Source: an uncultured Bacillota bacterium
GTDB lineage: Bacteria; Bacillota_I; Bacilli_A; RFN20; CAG-288
DNA length: 64,000 nucleotides
Assembly (NCBI GenBank): GCA_949290645.1
Contig: CASESG010000004.1
Coordinates: 10,821 to 74,820 of the forward strand
Reading direction: 5' to 3'
Part shown: positions 14,020-51,735 of the stretch, in pieces
How the letters are laid out: every line of letters starts with the position of its first letter
Position numbering within the stretch: position 1 is the stretch's first letter
Position numbers and translations under genes: made by a program
Notes under the pieces: model-generated
What the model saw: only the letters and a program-made list of their open reading frames with translations
Database searches by the model: none
Told to the model about the DNA's origin: nothing

Positions 14020-14020
14020 T

Positions 14021-18957: not shown

Positions 18958-18958
18958 G

Positions 18959-30108: not shown

Positions 30109-32835
30109 TCAGGCGATGACTGTCGTCGCTCCCTTTCTCCAGACGCCCAAGGTCGAATCGAACTGCAAAGAAGCAATCGGAGCATAGAGGCTACGATTCC
30201 CGGAAGACCAATCCTGGGCAGGAGTTTGTGAAATCGTCCTTGTGAAGTAATCCCACGTCACCGTTTGCGTCTGAGTGCCAAACGATGAACCCGAAATGCT
30301 TCCGGTATTGTCATCTCCCGTATAGGTCCACCCGGAATCGCTCGTCCCCTCGTCGATATGCTTTGTCAAGGAAATGGTGCCGATTCTCGAATAGGAGGAA
30401 ATGCCGGAAAAACGAGTGATGTCCGCCGGGTAATACCCCGTCGTCCCCGAAGTGTAGGAGACAGAGGAAAACAGGCTCATGGAGGAAATCGTCACAGATT
30501 GATTCGTCAAATAGTTCGTTGTCGTGTTTTCCGTCACAGAATATTCTGTCGGCATTGGACTGAAATCTCCCCAAGGGCCATGAACAATACCAAATGAAGT
30601 ACGATTCCTTGAAGCCGTGCCTTTCTCTCCGTCTCCCACCCATGTCTCCATGCTTGAGCGCACCGAAATGGTATAGGTCGTCGAATCGTTCGAGACCGGA
30701 TAGAAGTTACGTGTTGAAGAACTGTATTGGTTGTCATAGACATAGGCCGCATATGCATCGAACGTCGCCGTCGGATCAGGCACTTCGACCTGCTGGCCCC
30801 GATAGTAGGCATAATACTGGGTCGCTGTCCGGGCAAGGTGATCCTCCGACACATAGGATTCGATGGGAGTCATCGTCCCACTCATCGGACTTCCCGAGTC
30901 TGTCACATAGATATATTGGTTTTGGCCGACGGAATACACGCCTGTCCGATAGTCGTATTCCGTCTCTCCATTCGTCAAGGTGGAATCGATGTCTTCCGAG
31001 CGAAAGACGTGATAGGGGGAATCGGAAGATGAATCGTCGTTGACCATCAGGGGAACAATGAGGTACTCGTGAATCGATGATTCGAGCATGTCCTTGATGC
31101 TTCCCCCTAAAAGCGTACCGATAGCGGATCCAAGATCGATGTCTCCTCCCATATAAGAAAAGGGAATGGCGCGGGAAACGAAGGTGTCGAAAGAGGATGC
31201 GTTTCCGTTCAAATAGTCTTTTGTCGATTCGGAAAGATTCATCATTCCGGCAAGGGGATGCCCCTCCCCATCAGCCTGAATGGAACCGCCGATGGTGACG
31301 CGCGGATTCTTCTGCACGTTTCTTTCCGTTTCCTCAAGCTCATATTTCTGGTAGCGGGATCGGGTAAAATTGTAATTCGCCTTGCTATAGCCATAAAACG
31401 CCGTTGATGAATCGACTGGAAGTTCGGAAAGAACGATCAGCCCTCCTTTTGAAGTCCCTTTCTCTATGTCCACTTCGACATCTCCGAATGTAGGAATGAC
31501 GACGTTGCTGTCGAAATCGCGGCTCGTCAATCGCACCAGACTCCCTTCTTCCGTCATGACCGTGGCCCCTGGACTCAAAAGCAAAGTCAACGGAAGGGTC
31601 AAGTCGCAGTCCTTTCGAACCCTGAAATGATAGTAAGAAGGAATGTAGAAAGAAAACTGCGACATTTCAATATTGGCAGTCATCTCAAGTCCGGAAAAGG
31701 TCAAGGTTGTATTCAATGTCATGCTTTCGACAGTGACGGAACCATAAAAATCGTATTCCACGCGATGATTCGCTTCATAGGAATTGACAGCATCTGTCGA
31801 ATCCGAAAGGTTGTTATAACCATCCCGGACAATCACAGAATCCGCGGACGTCAGATTGAAGAGGGATCCCGATGGCCCTAACACGTTCATCTGCGTCTTC
31901 GTCATCATGGACTGCGCATAAAGCATCGTCGCCCCAGTCAGAACCGCTCCATGACGAAACCGGATCGAACAGCTGAGGTAGGGCATCGAATAGGTCGAAA
32001 AGGGCATCGTGGAGAAGGCCGCCCTTCCGACCGTCGGTCCGCCGCCACCATAGTCTTCGACGACAAATCCCGCGTAGATGGTTCCGGAGCAGTCGACTTC
32101 TCCAATGTGCTGCCCGTCGATCTTGCTCGTGGCGGAGTCGAGAAGATATCCGTAGGCATTCATCGTCGCTCCCGACTGAATCGTCAGCGTATGTCCGTTG
32201 AGATCGAGGGCGACGAAGCTCCCTTCGATGACACAGCCCGCGTTTCCGCCACCCGAACTCGATCCGACAAGGGCTCCGATGCTGAGAATGCCGCCGCTGG
32301 TCACAGTGACATCCCCCGCCAGTCGAATCGTATAGAGCCGGGCGGGACGAGAATCGTAATTCTGATCGTAATAATAGTTGATGGGACGGGCCGAATTCGT
32401 CGTCGCCCCTCCATCGGCCGCCGTGGTGGCAAAGCCTCCGTCTTCGGTCGGGCTCTTTCCCAGGAAGTCGTCGATTCCATAGTCGATGTCGTTTTGCCGA
32501 TGGGTGAAGTGAACAGGAGAGGAAATCTCCAGGACTTCCCCGGGCCTCCCCAAGGAAATCACCCGATTGTCTTCGTCGTATTGTGAATCGTTGTAGACAC
32601 CCGAATAGTCTCCCGACGCCGCATTCGTCTTGCTGTCATAGATGTAGCTTGGATTCGTTCCCGTCTTGTTTTCCAAGAAAGTCGTCAAGTCGCTTGGCAC
32701 AAATTCGACATAGTCCTCGTTGCTTGGAGCCTGTGCTGTCCCGTTGATGATCCACGTCGAGAAACCGACGGCAATCAAGAAGAACGTCAGAAAGGAAAGC
32801 AGGAAGGCCGAACGGATCTTCCGTGTCCTCTTCAT
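30109..32835 (-). CDS. Large secreted/anchored protein (908 aa) with the operon-specific N-terminal motif (AVGFSTWIING); paralog of 34328..37000
   Basis: Start was re-picked at ATG 32835 (MKRTRKIRSAFLLSFLTFFLIAVGFSTWII), an ATGA overlap with the upstream gene. Shares blocks with the 890-aa protein: LDLNGH.LTI.S, YG.L.DS, DYGGGG, PF..YSMPYL.C..R, and a C-terminal FDS.L..W. Confidence 0.85.
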   Translation of the reverse strand: MKRTRKIRSAFLLSFLTFFLIAVGFSTWIINGTAQAPSNEDYVEFVPSDLTTFLENKTGTNPSYIYDSKTNAASGDYSGVYNDSQYDEDNRVISLGRPGEVLEISSPVHFTHRQNDIDYGIDDFLGKSPTEDGGFATTAADGGATTNSARPINYYYDQNYDSRPARLYTIRLAGDVTVTSGGILSIGALVGSSSGGGNAGCVIEGSFVALDLNGHTLTIQSGATMNAYGYLLDSATSKIDGQHIGEVDCSGTIYAGFVVEDYGGGGPTVGRAAFSTMPFSTYSMPYLSCSIRFRHGAVLTGATMLYAQSMMTKTQMNVLGPSGSLFNLTSADSVIVRDGYNNLSDSTDAVNSYEANHRVEYDFYGSVTVESMTLNTTLTFSGLEMTANIEMSQFSFYIPSYYHFRVRKDCDLTLPLTLLLSPGATVMTEEGSLVRLTSRDFDSNVVIPTFGDVEVDIEKGTSKGGLIVLSELPVDSSTAFYGYSKANYNFTRSRYQKYELEETERNVQKNPRVTIGGSIQADGEGHPLAGMMNLSESTKDYLNGNASSFDTFVSRAIPFSYMGGDIDLGSAIGTLLGGSIKDMLESSIHEYLIVPLMVNDDSSSDSPYHVFRSEDIDSTLTNGETEYDYRTGVYSVGQNQYIYVTDSGSPMSGTMTPIESYVSEDHLARTATQYYAYYRGQQVEVPDPTATFDAYAAYVYDNQYSSSTRNFYPVSNDSTTYTISVRSSMETWVGDGEKGTASRNRTSFGIVHGPWGDFSPMPTEYSVTENTTTNYLTNQSVTISSMSLFSSVSYTSGTTGYYPADITRFSGISSYSRIGTISLTKHIDEGTSDSGWTYTGDDNTGSISGSSFGTQTQTVTWDYFTRTISQTPAQDWSSGNRSLYAPIASLQFDSTLGVWRKGATTVIA

Positions 32836-33505
32836 GCTGCCACCTCCTGTGCCATCATCGTCATCGAGAAGGAAAAGGTGCCATCCGTCAGAAAGGAGAA
32901 GAGCGTCTCGTCGAAATGCTGGAAGGTATAACGGACGAAATACTCCCCCTCCGAGGCAGGGACGGTCCAATCCGTCGAGATGTCGATGGAATACCGGCCG
33001 TCTTCTGCTGTCGCCTCGAAGGCAAAGGAGGGAATCTCCGCCATGGCGACGGACGATTGGTCGACAGAGGAATAGACCCAAACGACAGGGGAGAGATACG
33101 ATTGGTTTTCATTCACCTGGAGAGAGAGTTCGTATCGCCCGTCCTCACCCAGAGCAATCATCCGCGGAGAGGACGTCTGATAGTTCAGCCTTCCCTGAAG
33201 CACGTAATCGTAACCGTCCAACGTTCGATCGATCGAAAGCGGAATGTCCAGATGTCCGACGCTTCCGTTCAGAAAACCGGCAATCGAAAAGCGGACAGGC
33301 TGGACGTCGCCGATCGTCAGGCAATCTCGGATGTCCAGGACACCATCCGCTTCGACAGGAACGGTCGCACTCTGCGGACGGCTTTCCCCGTCTTGAATGA
33401 CCCAGCTGGAAAAGCCGACGGCAAAAAGGGTCAAAACACTAAGAACCTGCACCCCCCCCCCGCAAGGAAGAGCCGATGGCGTCGAACCCAGCGATTCAGT
33501 TTCAT
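32832..33505 (-). CDS. Small secreted protein with the GFSSWVI motif; 5' end interrupted by a poly-G(10) tract (candidate phase-variable gene, OFF frame in this sequence)
   Basis: ATG 33505 lies 4 nt after the lgt stop and encodes MKLNRWVRRHRLFLAGGG. After the G10 run it falls out of frame with VQVLSVLTLFAVGFSSWVIQDG... A run of 11 or 8 G would restore the frame. The track ORF uses a GTG inside the run (33452). Confidence 0.7.
33452..33461. repeat. Homopolymeric C10 (G10 on the coding strand) inside the 5' coding region
   Basis: Read directly: a cccccccccc g at 33451-33462. Confidence 0.95.
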
Positions 33506-33509
33506 GTTG

Positions 33510-34325
33510 CTATGATACTCCATTGTCCCCTGATTGCGAAACGCAATTTTCTTCCGCCGACTGCGTGAGCGTCTCTTCAAACTCCCTCAGAATCCTCTGC
33601 CCGCAATCCTTCCTCCTTCGATTCTGAACGTGAAGGACCACGATCCAGACGGTCGCGCCGACGATCTGGCCCAAGGAAAGAAGGTGACTGACCGAAAGGG
33701 GACCGACCACATTGGTTCGATGGCGAAGGAATTCCAGACCAAAGCGAAGAATGCTATAACCCAGGAACGTAGACAGGAAGGTCTCTCCCGGAAGAAGCCT
33801 CTTCTTCAGGAAAAGGAAGAAGATCAGGGCGAAGAGAAGCAGGTCCAATCCCGCCTCCAAGGGCTGGACCGGAAACAGTCCGTCCTGCACACCGTTGGTG
33901 ATGCCCCAGCCGACCGGAATCCCGTAGCAGCACCCCGTGCACATGCATCCGATGCGATAGAAGGCCAGTTCAATCAAGATACCCGGGGCAAGGAAATCCA
34001 TCAGGCGATAGAAACTCGTCTTCATGACCAAGGAAAGCAGGAAGAGGAAAATCGGCGTGAAGTAGAAGACCCCATAGAGAGAATATCCGCCCGACCAAGA
34101 GATAGGTTCGCCAAAGGCGGAGGGATTCTCCAGGTAGAACATGATCTTTGCCCCAAAGATCTCCAGGATGATCATCATCCCGCCAAGGAGCAAGGCCGTA
34201 TACCATCGATATCCGTACCATTTGTGGACAGCAACGTATTCCGCAAGGCAGAGGACGATGCCGATGCCCCAGAAGAAGACGGAGGAAGAGATGGAAAAGG
34301 AACCAAAGGAAATCTCCGGCAGCAT
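33510..34325 (-). CDS. lgt: Prolipoprotein diacylglyceryl transferase (Lgt family)
   Basis: Polytopic membrane protein with Lgt-like blocks: YSLYGVFYF, FYRIGCMCTGCCYGIP, FPVQPLEAGLDLLLF, ILRFGLEFLR. ATG 34325 lies 2 nt after the TAG of the upstream gene. Confidence 0.7.
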   Translation of the reverse strand: MLPEISFGSFSISSSVFFWGIGIVLCLAEYVAVHKWYGYRWYTALLLGGMMIILEIFGAKIMFYLENPSAFGEPISWSGGYSLYGVFYFTPIFLFLLSLVMKTSFYRLMDFLAPGILIELAFYRIGCMCTGCCYGIPVGWGITNGVQDGLFPVQPLEAGLDLLLFALIFFLFLKKRLLPGETFLSTFLGYSILRFGLEFLRHRTNVVGPLSVSHLLSLGQIVGATVWIVVLHVQNRRRKDCGQRILREFEETLTQSAEENCVSQSGDNGVS

Positions 34326-34327
34326 CC

Positions 34328-37000
34328 CTATGCCCTCACCCAACGATTCAAGGAGGAATCAAATTTGACTGCTGTCTTCTGCGTTGTGTCGGTAAGCCTG
34401 GAGCAATCCGCCTCTCCTGTCGAGTCCGTAGATGAAGAAAACTTGCAATACATCCCTGCAAAGAAGATATATTGTTCCCCATTTTCATCTTGATATACTG
34501 GCAACGCAGAATCTTTCGTAACTTTCAGCAAAGAGCAGGAGCCATCTTCCCTTGGTGCAGAAGAATAGGATTTAGTCGATTCTATGACGTAATGAGAGCC
34601 GTTGAACAACATCTCTCCTGTTCGAGAATCAAAAGTACCAACCACGCCATCAGTATCTGTCGCATTCTGATAATAGCAAAGTCCATTAGAAACGAGAGGG
34701 AGGCTGTATCCTTTGCAAAAATATGTTTTATAAGGAAAACCAGTGACACTGCCTAGCATCGTCGAAAAATAATAGGTCGAGATAGATGTTGTGCCTAAAC
34801 TGTCCGAGACGAGTTCCGTGAACGGATTCTCTCGCTCCTCATAATCGACATAGGTCAATGCAGATAAATCGTCAGAATAATACGCAACACGATTAAAGTT
34901 GATGTTCCCGGCAAGAATATATGGAGAAGAATTGCTGCCCGCATTTCCCTGTCGAATCGCCAACGTTCCATAGATTGAGATTCTTGGAGAAGAAAAGTAT
35001 TTTGCAAAAGCTTCCGAACGCCGATACTGACGTCCTTGACTTCCTTCCCCTCCATCCATGTAATCGTTATTAACGAATTTCTCGTATTGTGAATCGTAAT
35101 AATAGAAATTATTTCCTAATGCGAGAACTTGCGCACTACGTTGGCCATTGTAAGAAAGAGAAACGACACTATTTTCATCGGCAAAGAAGCTTGATCCCGG
35201 CATGAATTTGATTCTCTGTGAGATGACGATTGTCGAAGACCGGAGCATGATGTCAAAGAATCCAGAAATCGGGAAAATGAATTCGCTGGTGTCAATTGGC
35301 ACGGAAATGGTGAATTTCAACGCATTCATATTACATTGGACATTGTTGAGCTGGATTTCCATCCTTTTTGAAAGCACCGCTTGCCGATCTGCGTCTGTCA
35401 TTTTTGGGTCTTCTTCCATAGCCTTATGAGAATATCCGTAAATGTCAACGGACGATTCGGACTGAGGATTAGAAATGGAGAAAAGAAAAGAATCTCCCCC
35501 TTCGGGGCCAATGAAATTCAGGACAATTTCCGTCTGACTTGAGCCCATGTAGTTTATATGTGCAAGAGCAAGAAACTGGCCAAAAGAGTTATTGCTGTCA
35601 GTTTCTAATCTTACGTGGCATCGAAGATAAGGCAACGAATAAACTTCAAAAGGAAAGCATTTATCACTTCCGGAAACCATTCCAGAAGTCGCTCCTCCGC
35701 CACGATAATCCTGGATCGTCGCCAACGTTTGAATCGATCCACCCTTGACAAAAATTGTTCCTGTCCCTTTTGAATCTTTGATCAAGCCATAGGAGAGCAG
35801 GCTTCCTGTTGAATTGATTGTGATATCGTGTCCATTCAAGTCGAGGCAAACATATTCATTCGTAATGAGGCCATTTGCTGCTTGTGAATTCGCTACGCCA
35901 TAGTTTGATCCAATGACCAACGTTCCATCAATAACCATATCTTCCTGCAGAACAACCTTGTACTGCAGTTCGTGAGCGTCATTCTCTGGCTCGAAATTAC
36001 TGAATGATGTCGTTGTAGCATCCTTCTTTATGCTTCCGTCATTCAGTCCAAAGTTGATGGTGACACCCTCGTGAATCGTTGTTGCATGCGTCAAGAAGAC
36101 CGCCTTGTCCCCTTCAAAGTAAGACAAGTCATTCTTGACGTTTTCGCTCCCTTGCGCCGCTTGGGCGTTAAAGGTCTTTACACCGGTCTGAGTACTTGTA
36201 ATCGTATCGGAGAGATTGTTTTTATAGTCAGACAAATCGTTGTCACTATTTAGGACAAGATAATATGAAGAATCGCTTTCGATGGTCGTATCTTCAGAGA
36301 GGAAACTATCGCTCGGCAAAGGATTATCTTCCGCATCATAAACCGTTTCCTTGAACCCGACAAAAGTGTATCCGGAGGAAACGTCGCTGAGATGGTCCAT
36401 GATCATGCTTCTCGCATCGGAAAGGGGATTCCCCAAGTTGAGATTTGTGGAGAACTTGATGTCCGTTTCATATGAATAATGATACTTATTTTCTTCTATC
36501 TGTTGTTTCGAAATCTTATATGTTCCGGAATACGTATCACCACAGACCCCCTCTGTAAATGAAATGCTCTCGGTAACATTGACAATAATATAGTAGCCAG
36601 ACCAAGTATCTATCCCGAAATACTGATAAGGACCTTTAGTTAAATCTCCAACTGTTTTTCCAGTCAAAGTCTGCATCAAACTTTGAAAGTTCTCATATGA
36701 AGACGAGCTGTCCGTGGAATATTCTGTTCCGAGCTCGTAGTTGGTTCCATTGACCACACCCAGCGCTTCCTCTGAATGGGTGATGACTTCCATTCCATCG
36801 CAAATCTGATAGCGGAAATCGACCTTGACCTTCTCCTTGTCCTCCGTCTCTCCGCTCGTTGCCGTGGAATCGGAGGTGTCGACGACCGGATCGTCGACGA
36901 CGAAGGTCGCGTATCCGACCGCGACGAAGACGCCGAGCAGAAGGGAGAAGACGGTCAGGGTCTTCCAAAGAGGAATCTTTTTCGTTTTCTTGTTTTTCAT
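34328..37000 (-). CDS. Large secreted/anchored protein (890 aa) with N-terminal motif (AVGYATFVVD); paralog of 30109..32835; AT-rich core
   Basis: GAGGAGG RBS. N-terminus MKNKKTKKIPLWKTLTVFSLLLGVFVAVGYATFVV. For shared blocks see the paralog. Codon usage from about 34440 to 36720 is A/T-ending, unlike its neighbours. Confidence 0.85.
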   Translation of the reverse strand: MKNKKTKKIPLWKTLTVFSLLLGVFVAVGYATFVVDDPVVDTSDSTATSGETEDKEKVKVDFRYQICDGMEVITHSEEALGVVNGTNYELGTEYSTDSSSSYENFQSLMQTLTGKTVGDLTKGPYQYFGIDTWSGYYIIVNVTESISFTEGVCGDTYSGTYKISKQQIEENKYHYSYETDIKFSTNLNLGNPLSDARSMIMDHLSDVSSGYTFVGFKETVYDAEDNPLPSDSFLSEDTTIESDSSYYLVLNSDNDLSDYKNNLSDTITSTQTGVKTFNAQAAQGSENVKNDLSYFEGDKAVFLTHATTIHEGVTINFGLNDGSIKKDATTTSFSNFEPENDAHELQYKVVLQEDMVIDGTLVIGSNYGVANSQAANGLITNEYVCLDLNGHDITINSTGSLLSYGLIKDSKGTGTIFVKGGSIQTLATIQDYRGGGATSGMVSGSDKCFPFEVYSLPYLRCHVRLETDSNNSFGQFLALAHINYMGSSQTEIVLNFIGPEGGDSFLFSISNPQSESSVDIYGYSHKAMEEDPKMTDADRQAVLSKRMEIQLNNVQCNMNALKFTISVPIDTSEFIFPISGFFDIMLRSSTIVISQRIKFMPGSSFFADENSVVSLSYNGQRSAQVLALGNNFYYYDSQYEKFVNNDYMDGGEGSQGRQYRRSEAFAKYFSSPRISIYGTLAIRQGNAGSNSSPYILAGNINFNRVAYYSDDLSALTYVDYEERENPFTELVSDSLGTTSISTYYFSTMLGSVTGFPYKTYFCKGYSLPLVSNGLCYYQNATDTDGVVGTFDSRTGEMLFNGSHYVIESTKSYSSAPREDGSCSLLKVTKDSALPVYQDENGEQYIFFAGMYCKFSSSTDSTGEADCSRLTDTTQKTAVKFDSSLNRWVRA

Positions 37001-37011
37001 GGACTACCTCC

Positions 37012-37686
37012 TCATTCACGGCTTGTCGCCAATCCGAAGGTGATCTTGATTGTTGGAAAGGCCATATCGTCCGATTCCAGCAGATCCTTGTTGACGTTGG
37101 ATATCGTGAAGCGAAAGACCAGGGGGACCTGGTAGACTCCGTTTCGCGGATAGCTCGAATCGAGGGATGCCAGGGAGCAGAGGGACATGGCCTTTCGGCT
37201 TTCGACAGGAAAGTAGAACTGCGTCGTGTCGGCATTGTTCTCTTGGCAGATGGTTTCGGAGCGAGTGGCAGGAAAATCGTAATGATCGTAGTTTTCGGGA
37301 TAGACCATCAGTTCTTCGACGATGTTATTGAGGGTGCTCGCATAGCCCTGGTATTGGAACACCACCCGAAGGTCGGCGTCCTCGAAGGCCGAATGGTCCT
37401 TGTCCAGGTCGAGCGTCGCCTTGAGGGAGAAAAAGACGTCGCCCACGTATTCCGACGTCACGGAAGAAGTGTTATCTTCAAACGTCACGTACTGGAACGC
37501 CTCGAAGGAGTCCGGGACGATCTCGAAGCCGACGTCTTCCAGTCCGACGGTCGTGGTCACGACGTCGTCGGCCGAGACGGGAATCTCGACCCGTTCGCTC
37601 TCGCCGATGACCCATGTGGAAAAGCCCAGGCCAGCGATGCTGGCCGTACAAAGGCCGATGACGGTTGCCATCTTCCACTTCTTCAC
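37012..37686 (-). CDS. Small secreted protein (224 aa) with the GFSTWVI motif
   Basis: A GTG start at 37686 forms a GTGA overlap with the upstream stop. N-terminus (M)KKWKMATVIGLCTASIAGLGFSTWVIGE. The track ORF is over-extended to 38109. Confidence 0.8.
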   Translation of the reverse strand: MKKWKMATVIGLCTASIAGLGFSTWVIGESERVEIPVSADDVVTTTVGLEDVGFEIVPDSFEAFQYVTFEDNTSSVTSEYVGDVFFSLKATLDLDKDHSAFEDADLRVVFQYQGYASTLNNIVEELMVYPENYDHYDFPATRSETICQENNADTTQFYFPVESRKAMSLCSLASLDSSYPRNGVYQVPLVFRFTISNVNKDLLESDDMAFPTIKITFGLATSRE

Positions 37687-38825: not shown

Positions 38826-38841
38826 CGTGCTTTCCTCCTTG

Positions 38842-42359: not shown

Positions 42360-43960
42360 GCGCGAACCTCCATGGAACGATAGAGCCTCTCCACCACCTT
42401 CGGGCGGGCGAAGGGGACGGGAAGGAGGAGCAGGAGGCCCGGAAGGACAAAGTATCCGTAAAGCGCGTCCTGTGGCGTGCGAAGGAAGGACAAGACAAGT
42501 CCCAGGACGAGCTCCAGGGTCGGAACGAGATAGGACACCAGGGACGAGAGGAAGGAGAGCTTCAGCTCCCGGTCGCTGAGGTCATGAAGGTCGCCCAGAA
42601 GCGAAAGCAGGTTCATCGAGAAAACCAGAAGAAGTCCCAGGACCAGGCTGATCAGGAAGACTTGCCAGGAGACGATTCCGGTCGAGATCAGGACCACCAG
42701 GGAGACAAGAAGGGACAGGGTGGAGAGGGCAAAGGGGCAGAGAAGCTTGACCAAGAGGATCTCCATCGGATGGTAGGGGAGGGTCTTGGTGACCGTCAGT
42801 CCCTTCTCCTCCGCGGAAGGCTTGAGGGCGTTTCCGGAATTGACGATGCCGGCGAAGAAGAGGATCAGGGAGAGGAAGAGGGCATCCAAAGTGGTCGGAT
42901 AGTAGGTCAGGAAGATGTTGAGGTTGGCCGTGAGCATCACCTTCAGGGAGGAGAGGACGACGAAGGAAAGGAAGGGAAGCATGATCAGTACGGAGGTGTA
43001 GGAGAAGGTGTTGGAGCTGTCCTTGAAGAGAAGGAGGAGCTCCTTCTTCCACAAGGCCTTCCTCGGAGAGTCGATGACAAAGGAGGAGACATCGACTGTC
43101 TTCTTGCTCTCGAAGAGGAAGAGCTTCTTGGAAAGGGCGAAGTCCGCCGCGAAATATCCGGCGGACAAGGAGAGAAGGACGATACCCAAGATGACCAGGC
43201 TGTTGGAGAGCATGTTGTCCTTGCCCCAGAAGAAGTCCAGCATGTTGTAGACCGGGAACATGTAGAAGTTGCTGTCGATCAATCCCGAGACGAAAGCCGG
43301 GGAGAGCGTTCCCGTCAGAGATCCGTCGCTGAGGGCGACCAAAAAGAGGTTCAGGAAGACCTGATAGGCGTAGCAGAGACCCACGACGATGCCACAGGAG
43401 AGGAGGAACTGAATCAAATTCCGGTCTTTCAGATAAAGATGGATGACTTGGAAGAGAAGGGAAAGAACAAAGGAAAATCCCATCGATGTCAAGGCGAGGA
43501 TGAAGGTGTAGACAAGAGACATCACATGATACCAATACGGGAAGTGGACCTTGACGCCGAAGGTGATGAGCAAGGGGAGGGAAAGCAGGGAAAGCTCCAG
43601 CCACTGGGCCAGGAAGACATAGAGCATCTTGGAGAAGACCCTCTTCCCCCTGGAGATCGGAAGAGGAGAGACGACCAGTCGGTCTCTCTCGTCAAAGAGG
43701 GTCCTTCTCGCCCTTGTCGCCCCTTCCAGAATGGCCAGAAGAAAGATCAGGAAGAGGAAAAAGCAGACGACTCCGAAAGGAGCGATGTAGGAATAGCGGA
43801 TGAGCTTGTCGTACAAGGCATCGGTCAAGAAGGAAAGAAGGGCGATCAAAAGCCCTCCTCCGACAAAAGTCAGAAGAAGCTTGAGGGCAAAGAGGGCAAG
43901 AGACGACGTTCCTTCCTTCCGGTTGAGCCGGAATTCCTTAAACAAAAGCTCGAAGATCAT
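42356..43960 (-). CDS. Polytopic ABC-exporter permease-like protein (534 aa)
   Basis: Start was re-picked at ATG 43960 (MIFELLFKEFRLNRKEG), an ATGA overlap with the ATPase stop. About 12 hydrophobic segments. The track ORF is over-extended to 44461. Confidence 0.75.
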   Translation of the reverse strand: MIFELLFKEFRLNRKEGTSSLALFALKLLLTFVGGGLLIALLSFLTDALYDKLIRYSYIAPFGVVCFFLFLIFLLAILEGATRARRTLFDERDRLVVSPLPISRGKRVFSKMLYVFLAQWLELSLLSLPLLITFGVKVHFPYWYHVMSLVYTFILALTSMGFSFVLSLLFQVIHLYLKDRNLIQFLLSCGIVVGLCYAYQVFLNLFLVALSDGSLTGTLSPAFVSGLIDSNFYMFPVYNMLDFFWGKDNMLSNSLVILGIVLLSLSAGYFAADFALSKKLFLFESKKTVDVSSFVIDSPRKALWKKELLLLFKDSSNTFSYTSVLIMLPFLSFVVLSSLKVMLTANLNIFLTYYPTTLDALFLSLILFFAGIVNSGNALKPSAEEKGLTVTKTLPYHPMEILLVKLLCPFALSTLSLLVSLVVLISTGIVSWQVFLISLVLGLLLVFSMNLLSLLGDLHDLSDRELKLSFLSSLVSYLVPTLELVLGLVLSFLRTPQDALYGYFVLPGLLLLLPVPFARPKVVERLYRSMEVRA

Positions 43961-44784
43961 TCCTTCTCCTCCTCCACGTCGAACTGGCGGAAGATCTCCT
44001 TGAGCCTTCTTCTTTCCATCGGCTGCTCGCGGAAGTCGATCGAGCGCTTGATGATGCCGCTGTCGAGGATTCCGACCCGGTCGCAGATCTTGGAGACGAA
44101 GTCGATGTTGTGGGAGGTCAGGAAGATCGTCCTTCCGTTGGCCTTGAGATCCTTCATCAGGTTGAAGAGCATCTCGTTGACGACAAGGTCGAGACCGACC
44201 GTCGGCTCGTCCAGGATCCAGATCCTCGGATTGTGGATCAGGGAGGCGATGAGGCAGATCTTCTGCTTCATGCCGTGGGAATACTCGCGAATTCTCTTCT
44301 TCAGGTCCTGGTCGTTGAAGCGAAGGCGGGTGGCCAGAAGATGATAGTTGGTGACGAACTGGTTCTGCTTGACCCCATAGGCACCGGCGACGAAGGAGAG
44401 ATATTCCTTTCCGGTCATGACCTCGTAGGCCGTCGGTTCGCTGGCGACATAGCCAAAGCATCTCTTGGCTTCCTCAGGCGAAGCAAGGACATCGTTTCCG
44501 AAGATCTCGATCGTCCCTTCCTGGAACGACTTGAGACCGACCATGCAGTCGATGGTGGTCGACTTTCCGATGCCGTTTCTTCCGATCAAGCCGAAAGCCT
44601 CACCCTCCAGGACAGAGATGTCGACTCCCCGGAGCACCTCAAAGGAGCCATAGGACTTCTTCAAGCCATGGATCTGGATAGCCGTCTCCTTCTCCTTCTC
44701 GAGCGGAAGTCCTTCTTCCTTCCTGGAGATCGACTCTTCGGTAACGGGCCTTGTGCCCTTGAGCATCTTTGTCAGTGGATTCAT
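43957..44784 (-). CDS. ABC transporter ATP-binding protein
   Basis: Walker A GRNGIGKST, signature YSHGMKQK, Walker B IWILDEPTVGLD. Start was re-picked at ATG 44784 (ATGA overlap). Confidence 0.9.
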   Translation of the reverse strand: MNPLTKMLKGTRPVTEESISRKEEGLPLEKEKETAIQIHGLKKSYGSFEVLRGVDISVLEGEAFGLIGRNGIGKSTTIDCMVGLKSFQEGTIEIFGNDVLASPEEAKRCFGYVASEPTAYEVMTGKEYLSFVAGAYGVKQNQFVTNYHLLATRLRFNDQDLKKRIREYSHGMKQKICLIASLIHNPRIWILDEPTVGLDLVVNEMLFNLMKDLKANGRTIFLTSHNIDFVSKICDRVGILDSGIIKRSIDFREQPMERRRLKEIFRQFDVEEEKE

Positions 44785-46163
44785 CGAGACCTCCAAAGGC
44801 CCTTGAGCCAGACCAGGACCTTTCCGCGATTCTCGATCACGGAGAGGAAGGCGTGGCAGCTCGGGCAATAGTATCCGTCCTCCCTCTTGCTCAGATGGGC
44901 GTTGTGGCAGACAGGACAGCTGTAGTCGAAGGAATGACCCTCGTCGAACAAGAGGAACAAGGAGGCGAGGTAGTTTCGCATCCTTTCCTTGGATGCCCTC
45001 TCACCCGGAACAAGGACAAGGACATGGTCCTGTCTCTTCTCCTCGAGAAGGGACATCGTCGCCAAGGTGACATCGTCGACCTTCCGCTCCCGGACTTCCC
45101 GGAAGAGGGAAGAGACTTCTTCCTCTTTCACCAAGGGAAGGACCTTGAGCAGGCGGTCGGAGGAGGAGAGAGTGGCGTTGTTCTCCCTATCGAGAAGGAC
45201 AGATCGCAAAAGATAGCCGTCCTTGCGCTCGTAGAGGGAGAGGGTGAGATTCTTTCTCCTTGCGAAGAGACACTGGAAGCGGACTTCTCCCTCCTCGACA
45301 CGATAGCCGTAGGGAGTCAGCTCAAAGCCCTCTTCCGCGAGCTCCGAGAGAAGAGAGAGCAGGACGAAGGAGCGATATCCTTTCTCCTCTTTCTTCCCCT
45401 CCTCGTTTCTCTTTCTCAGCTCGTCGACATAGAAGCGGTAGCAATAGGAATAGAGAGGATGGTGAATCAGGACGTTCGTCGCCTGGATCTGTCCCTTGAT
45501 GGGGAACAGGACCAGGTCGTGATAGAACTTGCTGTTCTTCAGGCGCTTGAGATAGGTCAAGGCCTGATGGAGCAAGAGGTCGACATCCTCTTCCTTCTCG
45601 ATGACAGAGCGGTCGTCGAGATAGGGAACCTTGAGGTCGAAGCGGGAGAGCAGGTCCGTCGGCTCATAGCTGAGCCTCTTGTCCTTCCCGTAGTCGAGAA
45701 GAGAGCCTTCCCTTCTTCCAAAGAGATGGATCAAGTCGTGGATCTCACGGTCGACCATGTCGATCAGCATGCAGAGGAAGCGGTTCTCGTAGGTGTTGTC
45801 GACATCGATCTTCTCCGTCGAGTGGACCAGCTCCGGAACCATCGACCCGTCCTTCTTGCGAGACCAGAAGGAAGGCTCGCGGACCGTCTTCCGGAAATCC
45901 TCTTCCGATAGAGGACCCGAGACCTCGACCCTCTTGACTTCCTCTTCCCGGGAAGTGACGATGGCCGGATTCATGACGATGGAGAGGATGCGAGTCAATA
46001 AGGCGACCAGTTTCCTCGTCCAGGAGAGAAGCTTCTTGGGATCTTCCTTTCGATAGAGGTCGACCTTGCCCGTCTTTTCAAGGGAAAGGAGATGGAAGAA
46101 GTTCTTCTCCCCTTCCATCGAGACCAGCTGACGGTGGAGTTCGGACAAAAGCTGTTCTCTCAC
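44781..46163 (-). CDS. McrC/DUF2357-like partner protein with a C-terminal Zn-ribbon and no evident PD-(D/E)xK nuclease motif
   Basis: Lies directly downstream of the McrB-like gene (GTG 46163 is 1 nt after its TAA). The TYENRFL motif is recalled from DUF2357/McrC-like proteins. The C-terminus is CPVCHN...CPSCH. No D...(D/E)xK block was seen by eye. Confidence 0.45.
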   Translation of the reverse strand: MREQLLSELHRQLVSMEGEKNFFHLLSLEKTGKVDLYRKEDPKKLLSWTRKLVALLTRILSIVMNPAIVTSREEEVKRVEVSGPLSEEDFRKTVREPSFWSRKKDGSMVPELVHSTEKIDVDNTYENRFLCMLIDMVDREIHDLIHLFGRREGSLLDYGKDKRLSYEPTDLLSRFDLKVPYLDDRSVIEKEEDVDLLLHQALTYLKRLKNSKFYHDLVLFPIKGQIQATNVLIHHPLYSYCYRFYVDELRKRNEEGKKEEKGYRSFVLLSLLSELAEEGFELTPYGYRVEEGEVRFQCLFARRKNLTLSLYERKDGYLLRSVLLDRENNATLSSSDRLLKVLPLVKEEEVSSLFREVRERKVDDVTLATMSLLEEKRQDHVLVLVPGERASKERMRNYLASLFLLFDEGHSFDYSCPVCHNAHLSKREDGYYCPSCHAFLSVIENRGKVLVWLKGLWRSR

Positions 46164-46164
46164 C

Positions 46165-47979
46165 TTAGAGCCTCTTGATGAGCTTGCCGACGTTGTGACG
46201 CGTCAGCGGGAACTTCTCCTTTCCGTACGTCTCGTCGATCAGATCCAGAAGGTCGAGAAGACCCTGGCGGACATAATCCTCGAAACGGCCCTCGAGCTTG
46301 TAGAGGACCTTGCGGGCAAAGAGGAAGTCAAGCGCGTCTTCCTTTGTTCCTCCGCAGCTGACATAGACCGGGACAAGGATCTCGATCTGGTTGAGGACAC
46401 GGTTACCGAAGGTGATGTCGAAGGTGTCCGAGAGGAAGGAGATGAGCTTGGCGAAGCGGGCGAAGTCCTCCTTCGTCAGGCGATTGCTCTCGGTCGAGAG
46501 AGCCTTGGCATAGAGGGCGTTGAGTCCCTTATAGGTCAGATGGATCGGAGCGACCTCTCCCTCGACCTCGAAAGGTTCGTTGCGGTCGTCGAAGGAAATC
46601 GTGATGGCACGGTCATAGACCTTGTCGGTGATGGTGTAGGTCGAGTCGTCCTTGTTGGCCGTTCCGATGAACCAGGTGTTCTCCGGGATCTTCAGGACGC
46701 CGTTCTCGAGATGGCTGGGCCCCTCGAATTCATAGGGAACCTGAAGGATGCGGAGCTTCCACTTGTCGATCGGGTATTCCATGATGGAGAGGAAGTCGGC
46801 GAAGTAGTATTCGACACGGGAGATGTTGACCTCGTCCAGGACCATGATGTTGATGTCGTTGGGGCGATAGGTCATCTGATACAGACGCTTGAGGAAGTCC
46901 GTCTCGTTGTACTTGCGGGAGAAGTCGTTGAAGAAGCCGAGCAGGGAAGTGCGGTCTCTCCAGGAAGCCTGGACCGGCTCGAAGAAAGATTCCTCTCCGA
47001 TGTATTCGGAGAAGTAACGGGCCAAGGAAGACTTACCCGTTCCCGAGAGGCCTTCCAGGATCAACAGACGGCTGGCCGCCATGCCCGAGAGGAAGGCGCG
47101 GATCGTGTCGATGGAGAAGTAGAGACCCTCGTTCTTCGCCAAGTAGCGACGGAAGTCCTCCGAGATCTCCCTGAGGGAGAGAGTCGTCTCGCTCTGGTTG
47201 AGCGGAGTCCTTGTCTCCTCGACCTCGTCGATCGTGCAAAGGCCAGGGAAGACATATTCCTTGGAGCCAAGCTCCGCTTCCGTCTGCTCGTCCTTCTCCT
47301 CCCCGTCCAGAGAGTTCGTCAGGTTGGAAAGGGCCGAGGAGGAAGGCCCCAAGGCCGAAGCCAGGGACAATCCATCGGCCGAGGCCAGAGTCGGTTCCTG
47401 CTTGTTATCCTGCTCATCGTCGATATCTTCCGTATCCTCGCCCTTGTTGAAGCGGAAGGGCTTGTCGATGTTGCGGAAATTGACGACCATCATGCAGAAG
47501 AAGAGAATCGGCAAGGCCAGGACGACGAAGAGCAGAGTGCCGATCAAGAGAGACTCGCCGAAGAAGAGGAAGCTGTTTCCGATCGCTCCCTCGCCCCTTC
47601 CGATCTGAGCCAGGAAGGAAAGGCCCAGCCAGAGAACGGCGCCTCCGAAGAAGGTCAAGGAGTAGATCAGGATCCACTTGGGAGTGAACAGCTTCTTTTC
47701 ATAAAACATGGCCAGGCGCATCTCGTAGATCAAGGCGCCGGCACAAAGGAATGCGTACACGCAGAACAGTCCCAAGACCATCCAGCCCTCGAAGCTGACC
47801 GATACCGAAGGAAGCTTCAGCATGGAAAACAGCACCTTCCGGAGCGGGCTGTTTTCGCTGATCAGGGCATTTCCCGTGTCGGCGAAGAATCCCGAGCCAG
47901 CCACGAACAACAGATAGAAGAACAGCAACGACAGGAAGATGTAGTTCTTCCTTGTAAAATGAGTCTTTCGTTTCTTCAT
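46165..47979 (-). CDS. Membrane-anchored McrB-family AAA+ (AAA_5) NTPase
   Basis: The N-terminal 170 aa or so contain 4 TM helices, followed by an acidic linker. The NTPase core reads LEGLSGTGKSS (P-loop), VLDEVNISRVEYYFADFLS (Walker B / McrB signature), WFIGTANKDDST, DKVYDRA. GGGAGG RBS; ATGA overlap with the sipW stop. Confidence 0.75.
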   Translation of the reverse strand: MKKRKTHFTRKNYIFLSLLFFYLLFVAGSGFFADTGNALISENSPLRKVLFSMLKLPSVSVSFEGWMVLGLFCVYAFLCAGALIYEMRLAMFYEKKLFTPKWILIYSLTFFGGAVLWLGLSFLAQIGRGEGAIGNSFLFFGESLLIGTLLFVVLALPILFFCMMVVNFRNIDKPFRFNKGEDTEDIDDEQDNKQEPTLASADGLSLASALGPSSSALSNLTNSLDGEEKDEQTEAELGSKEYVFPGLCTIDEVEETRTPLNQSETTLSLREISEDFRRYLAKNEGLYFSIDTIRAFLSGMAASRLLILEGLSGTGKSSLARYFSEYIGEESFFEPVQASWRDRTSLLGFFNDFSRKYNETDFLKRLYQMTYRPNDINIMVLDEVNISRVEYYFADFLSIMEYPIDKWKLRILQVPYEFEGPSHLENGVLKIPENTWFIGTANKDDSTYTITDKVYDRAITISFDDRNEPFEVEGEVAPIHLTYKGLNALYAKALSTESNRLTKEDFARFAKLISFLSDTFDITFGNRVLNQIEILVPVYVSCGGTKEDALDFLFARKVLYKLEGRFEDYVRQGLLDLLDLIDETYGKEKFPLTRHNVGKLIKRL

Positions 47980-48941: not shown

Positions 48942-48978
48942 TCAGAAAAAGCGAAAGAACGATCCTCGCTCTCCTGAT

Positions 48979-49653
48979 TTATGCCGTGACAGCGGCAATC
49001 GAAATGGAAATCTGATTGTCGTTATAGCCAGCAACCGCGTTGAGCGCATTGACGGCGTCGTCCAACGTCTTCCCCGTCTTTCCGCCGAAGTAGTCTTCCG
49101 GATTGGCCGGATTGTGGTTATTGAAATACGAACCCCAGGCGAACTCGACCGTGACGGTCAAGGTCGTTCCCGAATAGGAAGGAGTGATCGTCGCTTCGCC
49201 GCTCGCCGTTTCGCTGGCAGCCGCAACCGTTCCGTTTGTGACCGTGGCGATAGTGACCGCAGTCCCGGTGGTGCAGGGCGTGACGATGTATTCGGAATTC
49301 CAGCTCGGCCAGGTCGGAGTCATCGTAACCGTGCCGTTTGCCGTGGCGACTGCCGTAACATCGATGGTGAAGGCAAAGGACATGTCTTCCGTAGATGTCT
49401 CACTCCTGATCGCTCCCGCGTCATCCTCGACAGGGCCGAACCTGACGGTTCCATTGCTAGGATCCAACGCCGGCGTTCCCAAAGTGATCGTTCGGCGATC
49501 GTCGACGTTGTCCGCCGTCACGCTGATGTTGTCCAAAGTCTGACTTGTTTCCGTGGAAATCACCCACGAGGCATAGCCGATGCCGGCCGTGGCAACGGCG
49601 GCGCAGGAGATGAGGGAGATGGCAAACAGCTTCTTATGCTTGATCTTCTTCAT
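48979..49653 (-). CDS. Small secreted protein (224 aa) with the GYASWVI motif; paralog of 49675..50445
   Basis: AAAGGAG RBS. N-terminus MKKIKHKKLFAISLISCAAVATAGIGYASWVIS. Shares a C-terminal block (F.WGSYF...NP..Y) with the upstream gene. Confidence 0.85.
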   Translation of the reverse strand: MKKIKHKKLFAISLISCAAVATAGIGYASWVISTETSQTLDNISVTADNVDDRRTITLGTPALDPSNGTVRFGPVEDDAGAIRSETSTEDMSFAFTIDVTAVATANGTVTMTPTWPSWNSEYIVTPCTTGTAVTIATVTNGTVAAASETASGEATITPSYSGTTLTVTVEFAWGSYFNNHNPANPEDYFGGKTGKTLDDAVNALNAVAGYNDNQISISIAAVTA

Positions 49654-49674
49654 GATTTCTTTCTCCTTTCTTGC

Positions 49675-50445
49675 TTAGGCAACGTTTTCCGTCAAGGTGG
49701 AAGTCAGGATCAGGTCCGCGCTGTCGGAATCCTCGCCCGTGATGGCTTCGTTCATCTTGTTCAGCTCATCGATGACGCCCTGCAGGTGCGCCGCGTTTGC
49801 CGCCGACAGCGTTCCCTTCTGGAACAGGCCGTTGTAATACGTCATCGGGTTCAACGCGTCGAAGTAGCTTCCCCACGTGAAGGTCAAGGTCTGACCGCTC
49901 AGCGTCGCAAGATAGGTCCCGTCCGACTGCTCCTCGAAAGCGTCCTTCGCAATCGTGACGGCCGCCGGAGCCTCCAAATAGGTGAAGCTCTCCTCATCAC
50001 GAATGTTCAGCGTATCGTCCGAGGTCGTGACTTTGCCGGTCGAAGTCTCATCGAAGGCGAAGGTGACAGTCACGCCGCTGTCCAGCAGGCTGTTCACGTA
50101 GTCGGCACCCGCCGTGACCGTGATCGTCGCCGTCACGGTAAGGTCTTCGTTGCGCGAAGATGCGTCTTCTCCGAGGGTCACGACGGAGGACGTGATGCTG
50201 GAATCCGCTCCCGAGGTGTCCTTTCCGCCCAGGAAGAGGGCCTTCTCGGTCAGATTCACGGCCAGGGTCACCGAATCGTTGCGGGCCGTATCGACGGCGA
50301 CGGTCACATCGTCCTTGTCGTTTCGGATCTGATTGCCGATGATCCAGGTTGCGAATCCGGTCGCGATAAGCGTAACGGACGCAAAGCCGATGATGCCACC
50401 AGCAATCCACTTCTTCCTTCCAACGGATTTGTTGTTTTTCGGCAT
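49675..50445 (-). CDS. Small secreted protein (256 aa) with the GFATWII motif; first gene of the operon
   Basis: Start was re-picked at ATG 50445 (AAAGGAGAACACT-ATG). N-terminus MPKNNKSVGRKKWIAGGIIGFASVTLIATGFATWIIGN. Contains TFTWGSYFDALNP. Confidence 0.85.
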   Translation of the reverse strand: MPKNNKSVGRKKWIAGGIIGFASVTLIATGFATWIIGNQIRNDKDDVTVAVDTARNDSVTLAVNLTEKALFLGGKDTSGADSSITSSVVTLGEDASSRNEDLTVTATITVTAGADYVNSLLDSGVTVTFAFDETSTGKVTTSDDTLNIRDEESFTYLEAPAAVTIAKDAFEEQSDGTYLATLSGQTLTFTWGSYFDALNPMTYYNGLFQKGTLSAANAAHLQGVIDELNKMNEAITGEDSDSADLILTSTLTENVA

Positions 50446-50583
50446 AGTGTTCTCCTTTATGTCTATAGCCAATATAAGATTAGGATACATTTGACCGCTG
50501 GAATCGTCAAATCGCTTTCAAGCTCGAAGACAGATAATGACGCGGCTTTTCGGCCAAGATTGTAAAATTTCCAGAAATCCAGA

Positions 50584-50592
50584 CCCCCCCCC
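50584..50592. repeat. Homopolymeric C9 (G9 on the operon strand), about 140 nt upstream of the first operon gene
   Basis: Read directly: aga ccccccccc gac at 50581-50595. No ORF crosses it. Confidence 0.95.
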
Positions 50593-51372: not shown

Positions 51373-51735
51373 TCAGTTCTGGCTTCTCTTCCGGTCGTTG
51401 TAGATGTCCTCATCCTTCTCGGAGACATGCTCCAAACCCGTCCGGAAGAGATCCTTGATGTGGTTGTCCGTCAAGACATAGAGAACCTGCTTCCCCTTTC
51501 GATAGTAGGTGACGATGTCATGCTTCCGAAGGACCTGGAGCTGGTGAGAGACACGGCTCTGGGAGAGATTGAGGATCTCCGAGATGTCGTTGACACAGAG
51601 CTCATGCTTCAAAAGCAAAGAGACAATCGAGAGCCTTGTCGCATCCCCGAAGATGGAGTAGAAGGAAGAGAGTGTCTCAATGCTCTTTGCGGAAAGAAGC
51701 TGATCCTGAATCGTCTTTTTCGTTTCGTTGTCCAT
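51373..51735 (-). CDS. ArsR/SmtB-family transcriptional regulator
   Basis: Winged HTH FGDATRLSIVSLLLKHELCVNDISEILNLSQSRVSHQLQVLRKHDIV. Start was re-picked at ATG 51735 (MDNETKK). Confidence 0.8.
   Translation of the reverse strand: MDNETKKTIQDQLLSAKSIETLSSFYSIFGDATRLSIVSLLLKHELCVNDISEILNLSQSRVSHQLQVLRKHDIVTYYRKGKQVLYVLTDNHIKDLFRTGLEHVSEKDEDIYNDRKRSQN

Follow-up and report, generated by a model that had tools for sequence, protein, structure and literature searches.

A candidate phase-variable surface-protein apparatus with a SipW-type signal peptidase and a membrane-anchored McrB-like AAA+ protein in uncultured gut Bacilli

The genome assembly GCA_949290645.1 of an uncultured Bacillota bacterium (lineage RFN20, CAG-288) contains, within a stretch of 64,000 nucleotides (nt) of contig CASESG010000004.1 (positions 10,821 to 74,820 of the forward strand; hereafter the window), a cluster of 15 genes combining a SipW-type signal peptidase, a McrB-like AAA+ protein with a putative partner, an ABC transporter and six exported proteins of one family, here called P1 to P6. 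In our view it is somewhat more likely than not that this cluster encodes a phase-variable apparatus dedicated to the processing and assembly of cell-surface proteins and restricted to uncultured Mollicutes-related gut Bacilli. The cluster is a genuine and widespread system whose function has yet to be characterised. Its nearest counterpart in the literature is found in a study describing a large clade of NxD-type McrB-like GTPases, which was named CoCoPALM in one paragraph (PMC11090510; Bell et al., eLife 2024). CoCoPALM GTPases are fused to an FtsB-like transmembrane (TM) and coiled-coil domain, paired with coiled-coil McrC homologues and linked to proteins of the signal peptidase family, with details deferred by the authors to a future paper; in the motif of the NxD clade, NxD is usually followed by E or a second D (PMC11090510). 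No follow-up paper on CoCoPALM was found, and full-text searches of the literature returned no description of the cluster itself, the CoCoPALM mention being the nearest. An earlier note on this DNA, made from the sequence alone, had put the cluster forward as an undescribed system, and this stands to the extent that no characterised apparatus matches it, but the CoCoPALM association had already been named.

The open reading frame (ORF) listing and translation of the window define 15 consecutive minus-strand genes (30109-50445), given here in the direction of transcription with lengths in amino acids (aa) and the evidence for each:

49675..50445, minus strand: P1, 256 aa, motif GFATWIIG, candidate major subunit (translation, ribosome-binding site, motif logo)
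48979..49653, minus strand: P2, 224 aa, motif GYASWVIS, paralogue of P1
47976..48941, minus strand: SipW-type (endoplasmic reticulum (ER)/archaeal-type, S26B) signal peptidase I, 321 aa (TIGR02228 and orthologue profile)
46165..47979, minus strand: membrane-anchored McrB-family AAA+ protein, 604 aa (hhalign, motifs, hydropathy)
44781..46163, minus strand: partner protein, 460 aa (DUF2357 via orthologues, zinc ribbon)
43957..44784, minus strand: ABC ATPase of the ABC-2/DrrA-like type, 275 aa (PF00005 at 1.5e-24)
42356..43960, minus strand: polytopic permease, 534 aa, ~12 TM segments (hydropathy)
39936..42359, minus strand: extracytoplasmic protein, 807 aa, single N-terminal TM anchor (hydropathy)
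38842..39939, minus strand: lipoprotein Lip1, 365 aa (LSSC lipobox; Flg_new at 1.5e-5)
37683..38825, minus strand: lipoprotein Lip2, 380 aa (LSSC lipobox; Flg_new at 4e-8, above cutoff)
37012..37686, minus strand: P3, small P protein, motif GFSTWVIG, start at GTG 37686 or ATG 37671
34328..37000, minus strand: P4, large P protein, 890 aa, motif GYATFVV, C-terminal end KFDSSLNRWVRA
33510..34325, minus strand: Lgt, prolipoprotein diacylglyceryl transferase, 271 aa (PF01790 at 3.7e-23)
32832..33505, minus strand: P5, small P protein, motif GFSSWVIQ, annotated form of 206 aa from GTG 33452
30109..32835, minus strand: P6, large P protein, 908 aa, motif GFSTWIING, C-terminal end QFDSTLGVWRKG

A script read of the junctions located 4-nt ATGA stop/start overlaps at 47976, 44781, 43957, 42356, 39936 and 32832 and a 4-nt GTGA overlap at 37683, reproducing every site of the tight, overlapping layout reported in the earlier note. 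The remaining intergenic gaps span 1-37 nt, with the exception of 57 nt ahead of the annotated GTG start of P5, and the six 4-nt ATGA overlaps point to translational coupling. Family and profile matches and hydropathy mostly agree with the identities first proposed for the SipW-type peptidase, the 4-TM McrB-family AAA+ protein, the ABC ATPase, the ~12-TM permease, the lipoproteins and Lgt, and nine of the 15 products were left unassigned by Pfam, NCBIfam, PADLOC, PDB sequence searches and Foldseek. The cluster matches no characterised pilus, sortase, type VII secretion, S-layer or TasA system.

The window locus resembles CoCoPALM in that it also carries a TM-fused McrB-like NTPase with a DUF2357-type partner and a signal peptidase beside them; assembly of surface structures is the proposed role, and both systems are uncharacterised. 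They differ, as far as the published description allows comparison, in that the CoCoPALM fusion consists of one FtsB-like TM segment and a coiled coil, whereas the window AAA+ protein has four TM segments, and the published CoCoPALM text contains no ABC transporter, P-type substrates, anchored beta-helix protein, lipoprotein or poly-G switches. In the tapA-sipW-tasA operon of Bacillus subtilis and the sipW-bsaA-bsaB-bsaC operon of Clostridium perfringens an ER/archaeal-type peptidase likewise shares one operon with paralogous exported substrates (PMC11580942). A family-specific signal-peptide motif spans the cleavage site in both cases (as a prediction for the P proteins), and the substrates are, or here would be, structural proteins of the surface or extracellular space. 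The P proteins nevertheless belong to another family, without a Peptidase_M73 match or a TasA-like fold, and NCBIfam reported no TIGR04088-type SipW-cognate signal for the window products; the TasA and Bsa operons, for their part, lack a McrB-like NTPase, a DUF2357 partner, an ABC transporter, an anchored protein of some 800 aa and a lipoprotein.

With McrBC, as represented by EcoKMcrBC of Escherichia coli, the window pair shares the AAA+ core, its Walker A and B motifs, an N-x-x-D at the sensor-1 position and a DUF2357 partner encoded immediately downstream. In the window NTPase, however, a 4-TM domain replaces the DNA-binding domain, the partner has no recognisable PD-(D/E)xK nuclease, and the pair sits among surface-protein genes rather than restriction-modification or defence genes. 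The likeness of the locus to SipW-TasA operons is confined to the logic of a peptidase with cognate substrates, and that to McrBC to the NTPase/activator pair. The type IV filament systems (type IV pili, Tad, Com, archaella) offer a further parallel, read here from the genes alone, in combining paralogous small subunits and larger minor or tip proteins under a common N-terminal signal with a dedicated peptidase, a cytoplasmic hexameric NTPase and polytopic platform proteins in one operon. Pfam and NCBIfam detected no A24 prepilin peptidase, PilB/PilT-family ATPase or PilC/TadBC platform protein among the 15 products, and the P motif follows the hydrophobic segment instead of preceding it, so that cleavage would remove the membrane helix and not keep it as a filament core.

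Homopolymeric contingency loci are known from the poly-G/C tracts of Campylobacter, Haemophilus and Neisseria and from the poly-A tracts of the Mycoplasma vlp genes. The window locus and its relatives resemble these in carrying G/C runs of 8-11 in the promoter or 5' coding regions of surface-protein genes, in the occurrence of in-frame and out-of-frame states and in length polymorphism between genomes, seen here across genomes and assemblies. To our knowledge, poly-G contingency loci have not previously been described for these uncultured Bacilli lineages.

Full-length relatives of the AAA+ protein (43-78% identity) are present in at least 569 species-representative genomes. The best 80 of these constitute our genome set (loci numbered L001 etc.), for which gene order was established by tblastn of the 15 products against the 80 loci, and a metagenome set was obtained through a contig scan centred on the 807-aa protein, with loci of at least 20 kb counted as long. 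The best 80 genomes are gut or rumen metagenome-assembled genomes labelled Bacilli, Mollicutes, Acholeplasmatales, Anaeroplasmataceae, Ca. Onthovivens, Ca. Enteromonas or Ca. Scatosoma, apart from a few with implausible bin names; eight bins labelled Alistipes, Prevotella, Lachnospiraceae, Oscillospiraceae or Paludibacteraceae (L010, L020, L022, L004, L015, L019, L044 and L050) are probably mis-binned or mislabelled.

A core order of P genes, SipW, AAA+ protein, partner, ABC ATPase, permease, 807-aa protein and lipoprotein is kept in ~76 of the 80 species loci, and wherever contig extent permits. Individual components were found at 76 of the 80 genome loci for SipW, 80 for the partner, 78 for the ABC ATPase, 73 for the permease, 69 for the 807-aa protein and 63 for a lipoprotein; SipW both follows the P genes and adjoins the AAA+ gene, which in the window it overlaps by 4 nt, in 76 of 80. 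The complete core is present in all 33 metagenome loci of at least 20 kb. Both sets thus bear out the proposal that the genes form a coherent conserved unit, to which one lipoprotein of the Lip family belongs and in which the permease gene always lies beside that of the ABC ATPase.

Beyond the lipoprotein the picture changes. About half of the loci continue with a small P gene, often together with a large P4/P6-like gene, some carry large P genes upstream or a divergent small P gene, the number of P genes per locus ranges from 1 to 5, and Lgt lies inside the cluster at seven loci only (L022, L029, L033, L044, L092, L097 and L099). This variable tail indicates a conserved machine of ~9-10 genes, of which the 15-gene form is one lineage's elaboration; the assignment of Lgt, P3-P4 and P5-P6 to the machine, made when the window was read in isolation, does not hold. 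Between the window and L002, P1 and P2 are 35% and 40% identical, whereas SipW, the AAA+ protein and the ABC ATPase share 68-74% identity. The P proteins diverge far faster than the machinery, and this difference is what argues for their surface exposure and diversification. Comparison with L001 (CASFYT010000002.1), the nearest other species or strain, yields a mosaic of identities, higher for P1 (94%), P2 (88%), SipW (98%) and the 807-aa protein (97%) and lower for the AAA+ protein (78%), partner (65%), ABC ATPase (81%) and permease (80%), which suggests that the block from the AAA+ gene to the permease gene was replaced by recombination.

Each of the six P proteins starts with a K/R-rich n-region and a ~17-residue h-region, followed by the motif G-[FY]-[AS]-[ST]-[WF]-[VI]-[IV]. 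This motif occurs six times in a six-frame translation of the window, each time within the operon. A logo of 103 homologous N-termini from other species gives G at 100%, F at 96%, [AS] at 100%, [TAS] at 100% and W at 90%, followed by [IV][IV]. A profile of P1 and P2 collected 1,698 clusters at 50% identity, 798 of them with E <= 1e-10, all of 220-300 aa. None of 143 P-family members matched Peptidase_M73/TasA or any consistent Pfam family, and the profile found no sequence match in the PDB. The P family is a large new protein family, bearing what is predicted to be a new signal-peptide class, G-F-[AS]-[STA]-W-[IV]-[IV].

Within the family, P1 and P2 are full-length paralogues (BLASTP 3e-8) and P4 and P6 are paralogous over their central region (2e-19), while P3 and P5 have only the signal in common. 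P3 is the first half of a small-plus-large module; gene callers choose a 219-aa form of it, and ATG 37671 may be its start rather than the overlapping GTG 37686. The full P5 precursor, MKLNRWVRRHRLFLAGGG..., begins at ATG 33505 (or 33523) and is out of frame as sequenced. P4, which matched no Pfam or NCBIfam family, is probably beta-rich and adhesin-like, and P6 found no match among PDB sequences. Many large P proteins (among them P4, P6 and some from L012, L018, L035, L044 and L051) also share a C-terminal [FY]-D-[ST]-[ST]-L-x-x-W-[RK], as in KFDSSLNRWVRA (P4, ~34331-34366), QFDSTLGVWRKG (P6, ~30112-30150) and FYFDTTMCLWRWRK, which may serve as a docking or capping element. No sortase family was matched by any of the 15 products, and the P proteins do not end in an LPXTG plus TM tail.

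An AlphaFold2 (AF2) model of P1 reached a predicted local distance difference test score (pLDDT) of 71 overall, with residues 100-256 confident (block means of 74-95, core 85-95). Foldseek retrieved no neighbour for it at E <= 0.001 in PDB or BFVD, the best TM-scores against the PDB being 0.1-0.2. A TasA/camelysin fold for the small P proteins, expected in the earlier note as a jelly-roll, was rejected on the Pfam search of the 143 members, the profile search of the PDB and the Foldseek search with the P1 model.

The peptidase of the operon scores 54.4 bits against NCBIfam TIGR02228 (cutoff 51.85), and a profile of 30 SipW orthologues matched human SEC11A/C at 1e-10. Residues S112, H167, D182 and N184 are invariant across the enzymes of these 30 species and the GDxN Asp is present; judged by these residues, the SipW-type peptidase is catalytically intact. 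Hydropathy indicates three TM segments, and the protein has an acidic/lysine-rich cytoplasmic tail of ~85 aa. The Bacillus SipW equivalog NF046067 gave only 46 bits against a cutoff of 190, which means that the window enzyme and B. subtilis SipW are not orthologous. That the cluster is built around a dedicated SipW-type peptidase, as first supposed, is supported by the above-cutoff TIGR02228 score and by the adjacent P genes with their family-specific signal peptide.

Profile-profile comparison of the AAA+ protein with E. coli McrB (hhalign) gave a probability of 93.9% and an E-value of 1.7e-7 over 165 columns. This comparison was needed because the AAA+ profile had no match to PDB sequences at E <= 0.01. 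Walker A (GLSGTGKSS), Walker B (MVLDEVNISR) and an NKDD aligned to the NTAD of McrB are invariant, and the protein is probably a GTPase. Pfam AAA_5 was matched weakly by 12 of 12 AAA+ homologues, always under the Pfam gathering score. The N-terminal DNA-binding specificity domain of McrB is not present; residues 1-170 instead contain four hydrophobic segments, which place the NTPase on the cytoplasmic side, and are followed by an acidic low-complexity linker in which sequence inspection revealed no evident coiled coil.

The N-terminal half of the partner protein is helical, and AF2 predicts several helices there that are 20-40 residues long. The remainder comprises a central alpha/beta domain and an invariant C-terminal CxxC...CxxC zinc ribbon. 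DUF2357 (PF09823), the N-terminal, McrB-activating domain of McrC (PMC11090510), was matched by 20 of 32 partner orthologues (best E 3.9e-10), with the window copy sub-threshold (E 0.022). The McrC likeness in the first description of this protein, as a zinc-ribbon McrC-like partner, depends on these DUF2357 matches. The partner was rejected as a canonical McrC, since hhalign against E. coli McrC returned a probability of 0.2%, leaving only DUF2357. The partner profile matched the PDB through the zinc ribbon alone, Foldseek with the AF2 model (pLDDT 71.5) found no PDB neighbour and no nuclease match of any weight, and the invariant columns hold no PD-(D/E)xK endonuclease signature, although residues 281-410 could conceivably harbour an inactivated nuclease fold.

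The ABC ATPase matches TIGR01188 at 5e-51, under its equivalog cutoff, and the permease has no Pfam or NCBIfam match, with a profile of 28 orthologues finding none in the PDB. The 807-aa protein, originally described as a beta-helix/Ig-like anchored protein, does have a TM anchor, but the rest of that description depends on one similarity, a sub-threshold PbH1-like match (E 0.09) of its orthologue profile against the PDB; the protein may possibly contain Ig-like and parallel beta-helix repeats. Lip1 and Lip2 are paralogues (3e-60), both with a C-terminal Flg_new repeat, and Lip1 carries G-x-DG-x-x-I repeats. Ahead of Flg_new, Lip1 and Lip2 also contain 4-5 repeats of ~45 aa, G-x-DG-x-GI...LT(I)TYTDG...I.IP, with no family match in Pfam or NCBIfam. 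Lgt scores 82.5 bits against PF01790 (cutoff 24.9) and stays under the NCBIfam equivalog cutoffs, which marks it as a divergent Lgt.

Inspection of homopolymers revealed a feature missed in the earlier note's account of the locus. The window contains only two G/C runs of at least 7, both at the locus:

50584..50592, minus strand (C9 on the plus strand): G9 tract that lies ~139 nt before the start of P1, a candidate site of phase variation
33452..33461, minus strand: G10 tract in the signal-peptide coding region of P5, encoding a Gly run in the h-region

The G10 tract is the reason why P5 has no proper start as sequenced: G8 or G11 would open an ORF of 229-230 aa, and G9 or G10 truncates it at 27-30 aa. 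Other assemblies of the same species have G9 at this site; of five contigs, two stop within the tract. Equivalents of the upstream tract precede the first P gene in L001, L002, L017, L022, L025, L041, L059, L069 and L080, and in L093 a G10 tract occupies the 19-nt spacer between TTGACA and TATTAT. Small genes orthologous to P3 contain coding G tracts in L007, L010, L017 and L019; the coding tract leaves the gene in frame in L007 and L017 but puts it out of frame in L010, in L019 and in the window. In another species, five metagenome contigs read G11 at the site equivalent to that upstream of P1 and a sixth reads G8, while the tract forms the start of two contigs. At the upstream G9 tract of the window, the one other strain compared had a tract of equal length. 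In all, four independent metagenome contigs terminate exactly within poly-G tracts (the ends of L085 and L086, the starts of L163 and L164), and such contig termini fit read-level length heterogeneity or poor coverage.

In the genome set, all G/C runs of at least 8 but one (13 of 14) lie in one of two zones, the 400 nt that precede the first P gene and the small P gene that follows the lipoprotein. These zones were picked after inspection of the data and make up 3.9% of the sequence (binomial 7e-18); a further count of this positional clustering placed 8 of 10 runs in 3.9% of the sequence. Plain count enrichment was rejected, with 14 runs observed against 19 expected from per-locus GC in the genome set, and runs exceed expectation only in loci below 45% GC (9 vs 2.6 and 10 vs 3.3). 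The signal is left to positional clustering and the low-GC loci. The G-tract pattern apparently points to phase variation and resembles that of phase-variable contingency loci.

These features can be combined into a working model. The P precursors would be exported by Sec and cut by the operon's own peptidase. Type I signal peptidases follow the -3/-1 rule. The P-family logo has small residues at -1 and -3, and under this rule the best predicted and most likely cut is G-F-[AS]/[STA]-W, the slash marking the bond. Such a cut would expose a conserved hydrophobic N-terminus, [STA]-W-[IV]-[IV], which might join subunit to subunit or subunit to base; the donor strands of TasA/BsaA-type fibres (PMC11580942) serve as the analogy. 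P1 and P2 would serve as bulk subunits, and the P3-P4 and P5-P6 pairs as adaptor-plus-adhesin modules. A McrB-like hexamer embedded in the membrane could, when activated by its McrC-like partner in the manner of McrBC, act as a cytoplasmic, NTP-driven motor that extracts, hands over or retracts membrane-embedded P precursors, with the ABC transporter as a second energiser or as a handler of signal peptides or lipids. An extracytoplasmic base would be formed by the anchored 807-aa protein together with the lipoprotein, which Lgt would lipidate, and slipped-strand changes in the G tracts would switch the whole array or single adhesin modules on and off.

Several points count against an assembly apparatus of this kind. 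It is drawn from sequences and predicted models alone, with cleavage site, polymerisation and motor role all inferred. The P1 model resembles neither TasA nor the pilins of chaperone-usher and sortase systems, nor any other PDB entry, which leaves the donor-strand idea without structural backing. The best database match of the AAA+ core (PADLOC PDC-M26A, 2.6e-35) is a candidate phage-defence protein, the partner has no detectable nuclease or McrC similarity beyond DUF2357, and in L052 and L074 the AAA+/partner pair occurs without SipW. As regards phase variation, the zones were chosen post hoc, the raw run count does not rise above the composition expectation in GC-rich loci, and differences in homopolymer length between assemblies can be sequencing or assembly artefacts. 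The donor-strand and motor roles accordingly deserve much less confidence than the general claim of an apparatus. Tentatively, and with less than an even chance in our estimate, the locus would define a new class of surface organelle, in which a membrane McrB-type NTPase hexamer and a McrC-like activator have been recruited together with an ABC transporter. This organelle would assemble, anchor or retract filaments or adhesin complexes of SipW-processed, new-fold subunits under poly-G switching. Hundreds of species of uncultured gut Bacilli would possess it as a core part of their envelope.

Whether the locus is itself a member of CoCoPALM is a matter of classification, compatible with the proposed apparatus, and we regard membership as possible but doubtful. 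The TM-fused McrB-like NTPase and DUF2357 partner beside a signal peptidase fit, and NKDD can be read as NxD plus D, in agreement with the motif described for the NxD clade; when aligned to E. coli McrB, on the other hand, it reads as NxxD. The four TM segments and acidic linker are also not FtsB-like, none of 12 AAA+ homologues matching the FtsB or DivIC Pfam models at E <= 1, and the comparison is with a published description, not with CoCoPALM sequences. A different function altogether, which we think unlikely, would be that of a variable surface coat or secreted-protein system without a polymer. Here the P proteins would be antigens or adhesins individually displayed or released, the dedicated peptidase would cut their signal anchors, and the ABC transporter and McrB-like ATPase would perform export quality control, signal-peptide clearance or membrane extraction. 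Phase-variable multigene families of surface antigens are typical of the wall-less Mollicutes. Poly-G switches fit antigenic variation, P genes number 1 to 5 per locus and diverge fast, and the lack of resemblance between the P1 model and any known pilin or fibre subunit speaks for the same explanation. Strict conservation of [STA]-W-[IV]-[IV] across hundreds of divergent paralogues nevertheless suggests a shared interaction surface beyond the peptidase site, small-plus-large gene pairs suggest complexes, and an invariant, heavy membrane machinery with two NTPases exceeds the needs of simple secretion.

McrBC systems are classically restriction systems. It is conceivable on this ground, though in our judgement highly improbable, that the locus juxtaposes independent modules, namely a McrBC-like defence pair and an ABC exporter placed by chance amid surface-protein genes. 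The PDC-M26A match and the pairs without SipW in L052 and L074 agree with this, the former indicating that close AAA+ relatives exist in other contexts; no mention of "PDC-M26" was found in the literature. Gene order is nonetheless invariant in more than 100 loci from many species, and stop/start overlaps join the SipW and AAA+ genes as well as those of the partner, ABC ATPase and permease. Four TM helices replace the McrB DNA-binding domain, a nuclease is undetectable in the partner, and the locus is near-universal, single-copy and situated by the replication origin region, not in a defence island. A defence-system reading was also rejected on synteny, and PADLOC matched only the AAA+ core and generic ABC models. 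Even the lone pair of L074 lies directly 3' of a gene for a membrane-anchored surface protein with collagen-like repeats. As observed in L074 (7859-13074) and L052, these pairs are second copies of the 4-TM AAA+ protein and partner without SipW, ABC transporter or 807-aa protein, and the surface protein beside the L074 pair has 682 aa and GPKGDKGDEGPKGDKGDKGD repeats.

The window is chromosomal and adjoins recF-gyrB-gyrA-serS. It contains no tRNA or Rfam element, and no convincing intrinsic terminator was found 3' of P6. The 37-nt gap between P2 and SipW contains one further element:

48942..48977, minus strand: RNA hairpin, folding energy -19.1 kcal/mol, z = -3.35 against shuffles

This hairpin was also listed by a terminator pattern scan, and is possibly an attenuator or an mRNA-stabilising element 3' of both subunit genes; it could raise the P1/P2 transcript relative to that of the machinery. 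An ArsR/HTH_5-type regulator gene (51373-51765, minus strand) lies immediately upstream of the promoter region of the operon, and is a candidate link only. It falls in a stretch of low GC (~44%) between the operon and recF (50446-55200), which may be an inserted island and also holds a RhuM-family gene (52344-53234). Elsewhere in the window, 10804-19086 (minus strand) encodes two cytoplasmic ORFs of 1071 and 1136 aa, weakly similar to each other and without a Pfam match, and upstream of these on the same strand lies a gene for a predicted lipoprotein of 561 aa with an HETGH zinc-metalloprotease motif.

The lineages that carry this locus are common uncultured members of the human and animal gut with reduced genomes. 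For RFN20 and ML615J-28, a reduced display of surface proteins has been inferred from their lack of sortases; among related lineages, some are predicted to have no sortases and some no peptidoglycan (PMC10868615). A near-universal locus of at least 10 genes for exported, fast-evolving and apparently phase-variable proteins would be the main candidate in these organisms for attachment to host, mucus or partner cells and for immune evasion. The P1/P2 type alone accounts for ~1,700 clusters at 50% identity, and annotation pipelines now call proteins with the P-type signal peptide "hypothetical". If the proposed apparatus is correct, the locus would provide a worked example of a McrBC-type NTPase motor acting on proteins at the membrane instead of on DNA, for a McrB-type machine otherwise known only from nucleic-acid restriction, and would give experimental access to the CoCoPALM idea, which so far amounts to one paragraph in the literature.

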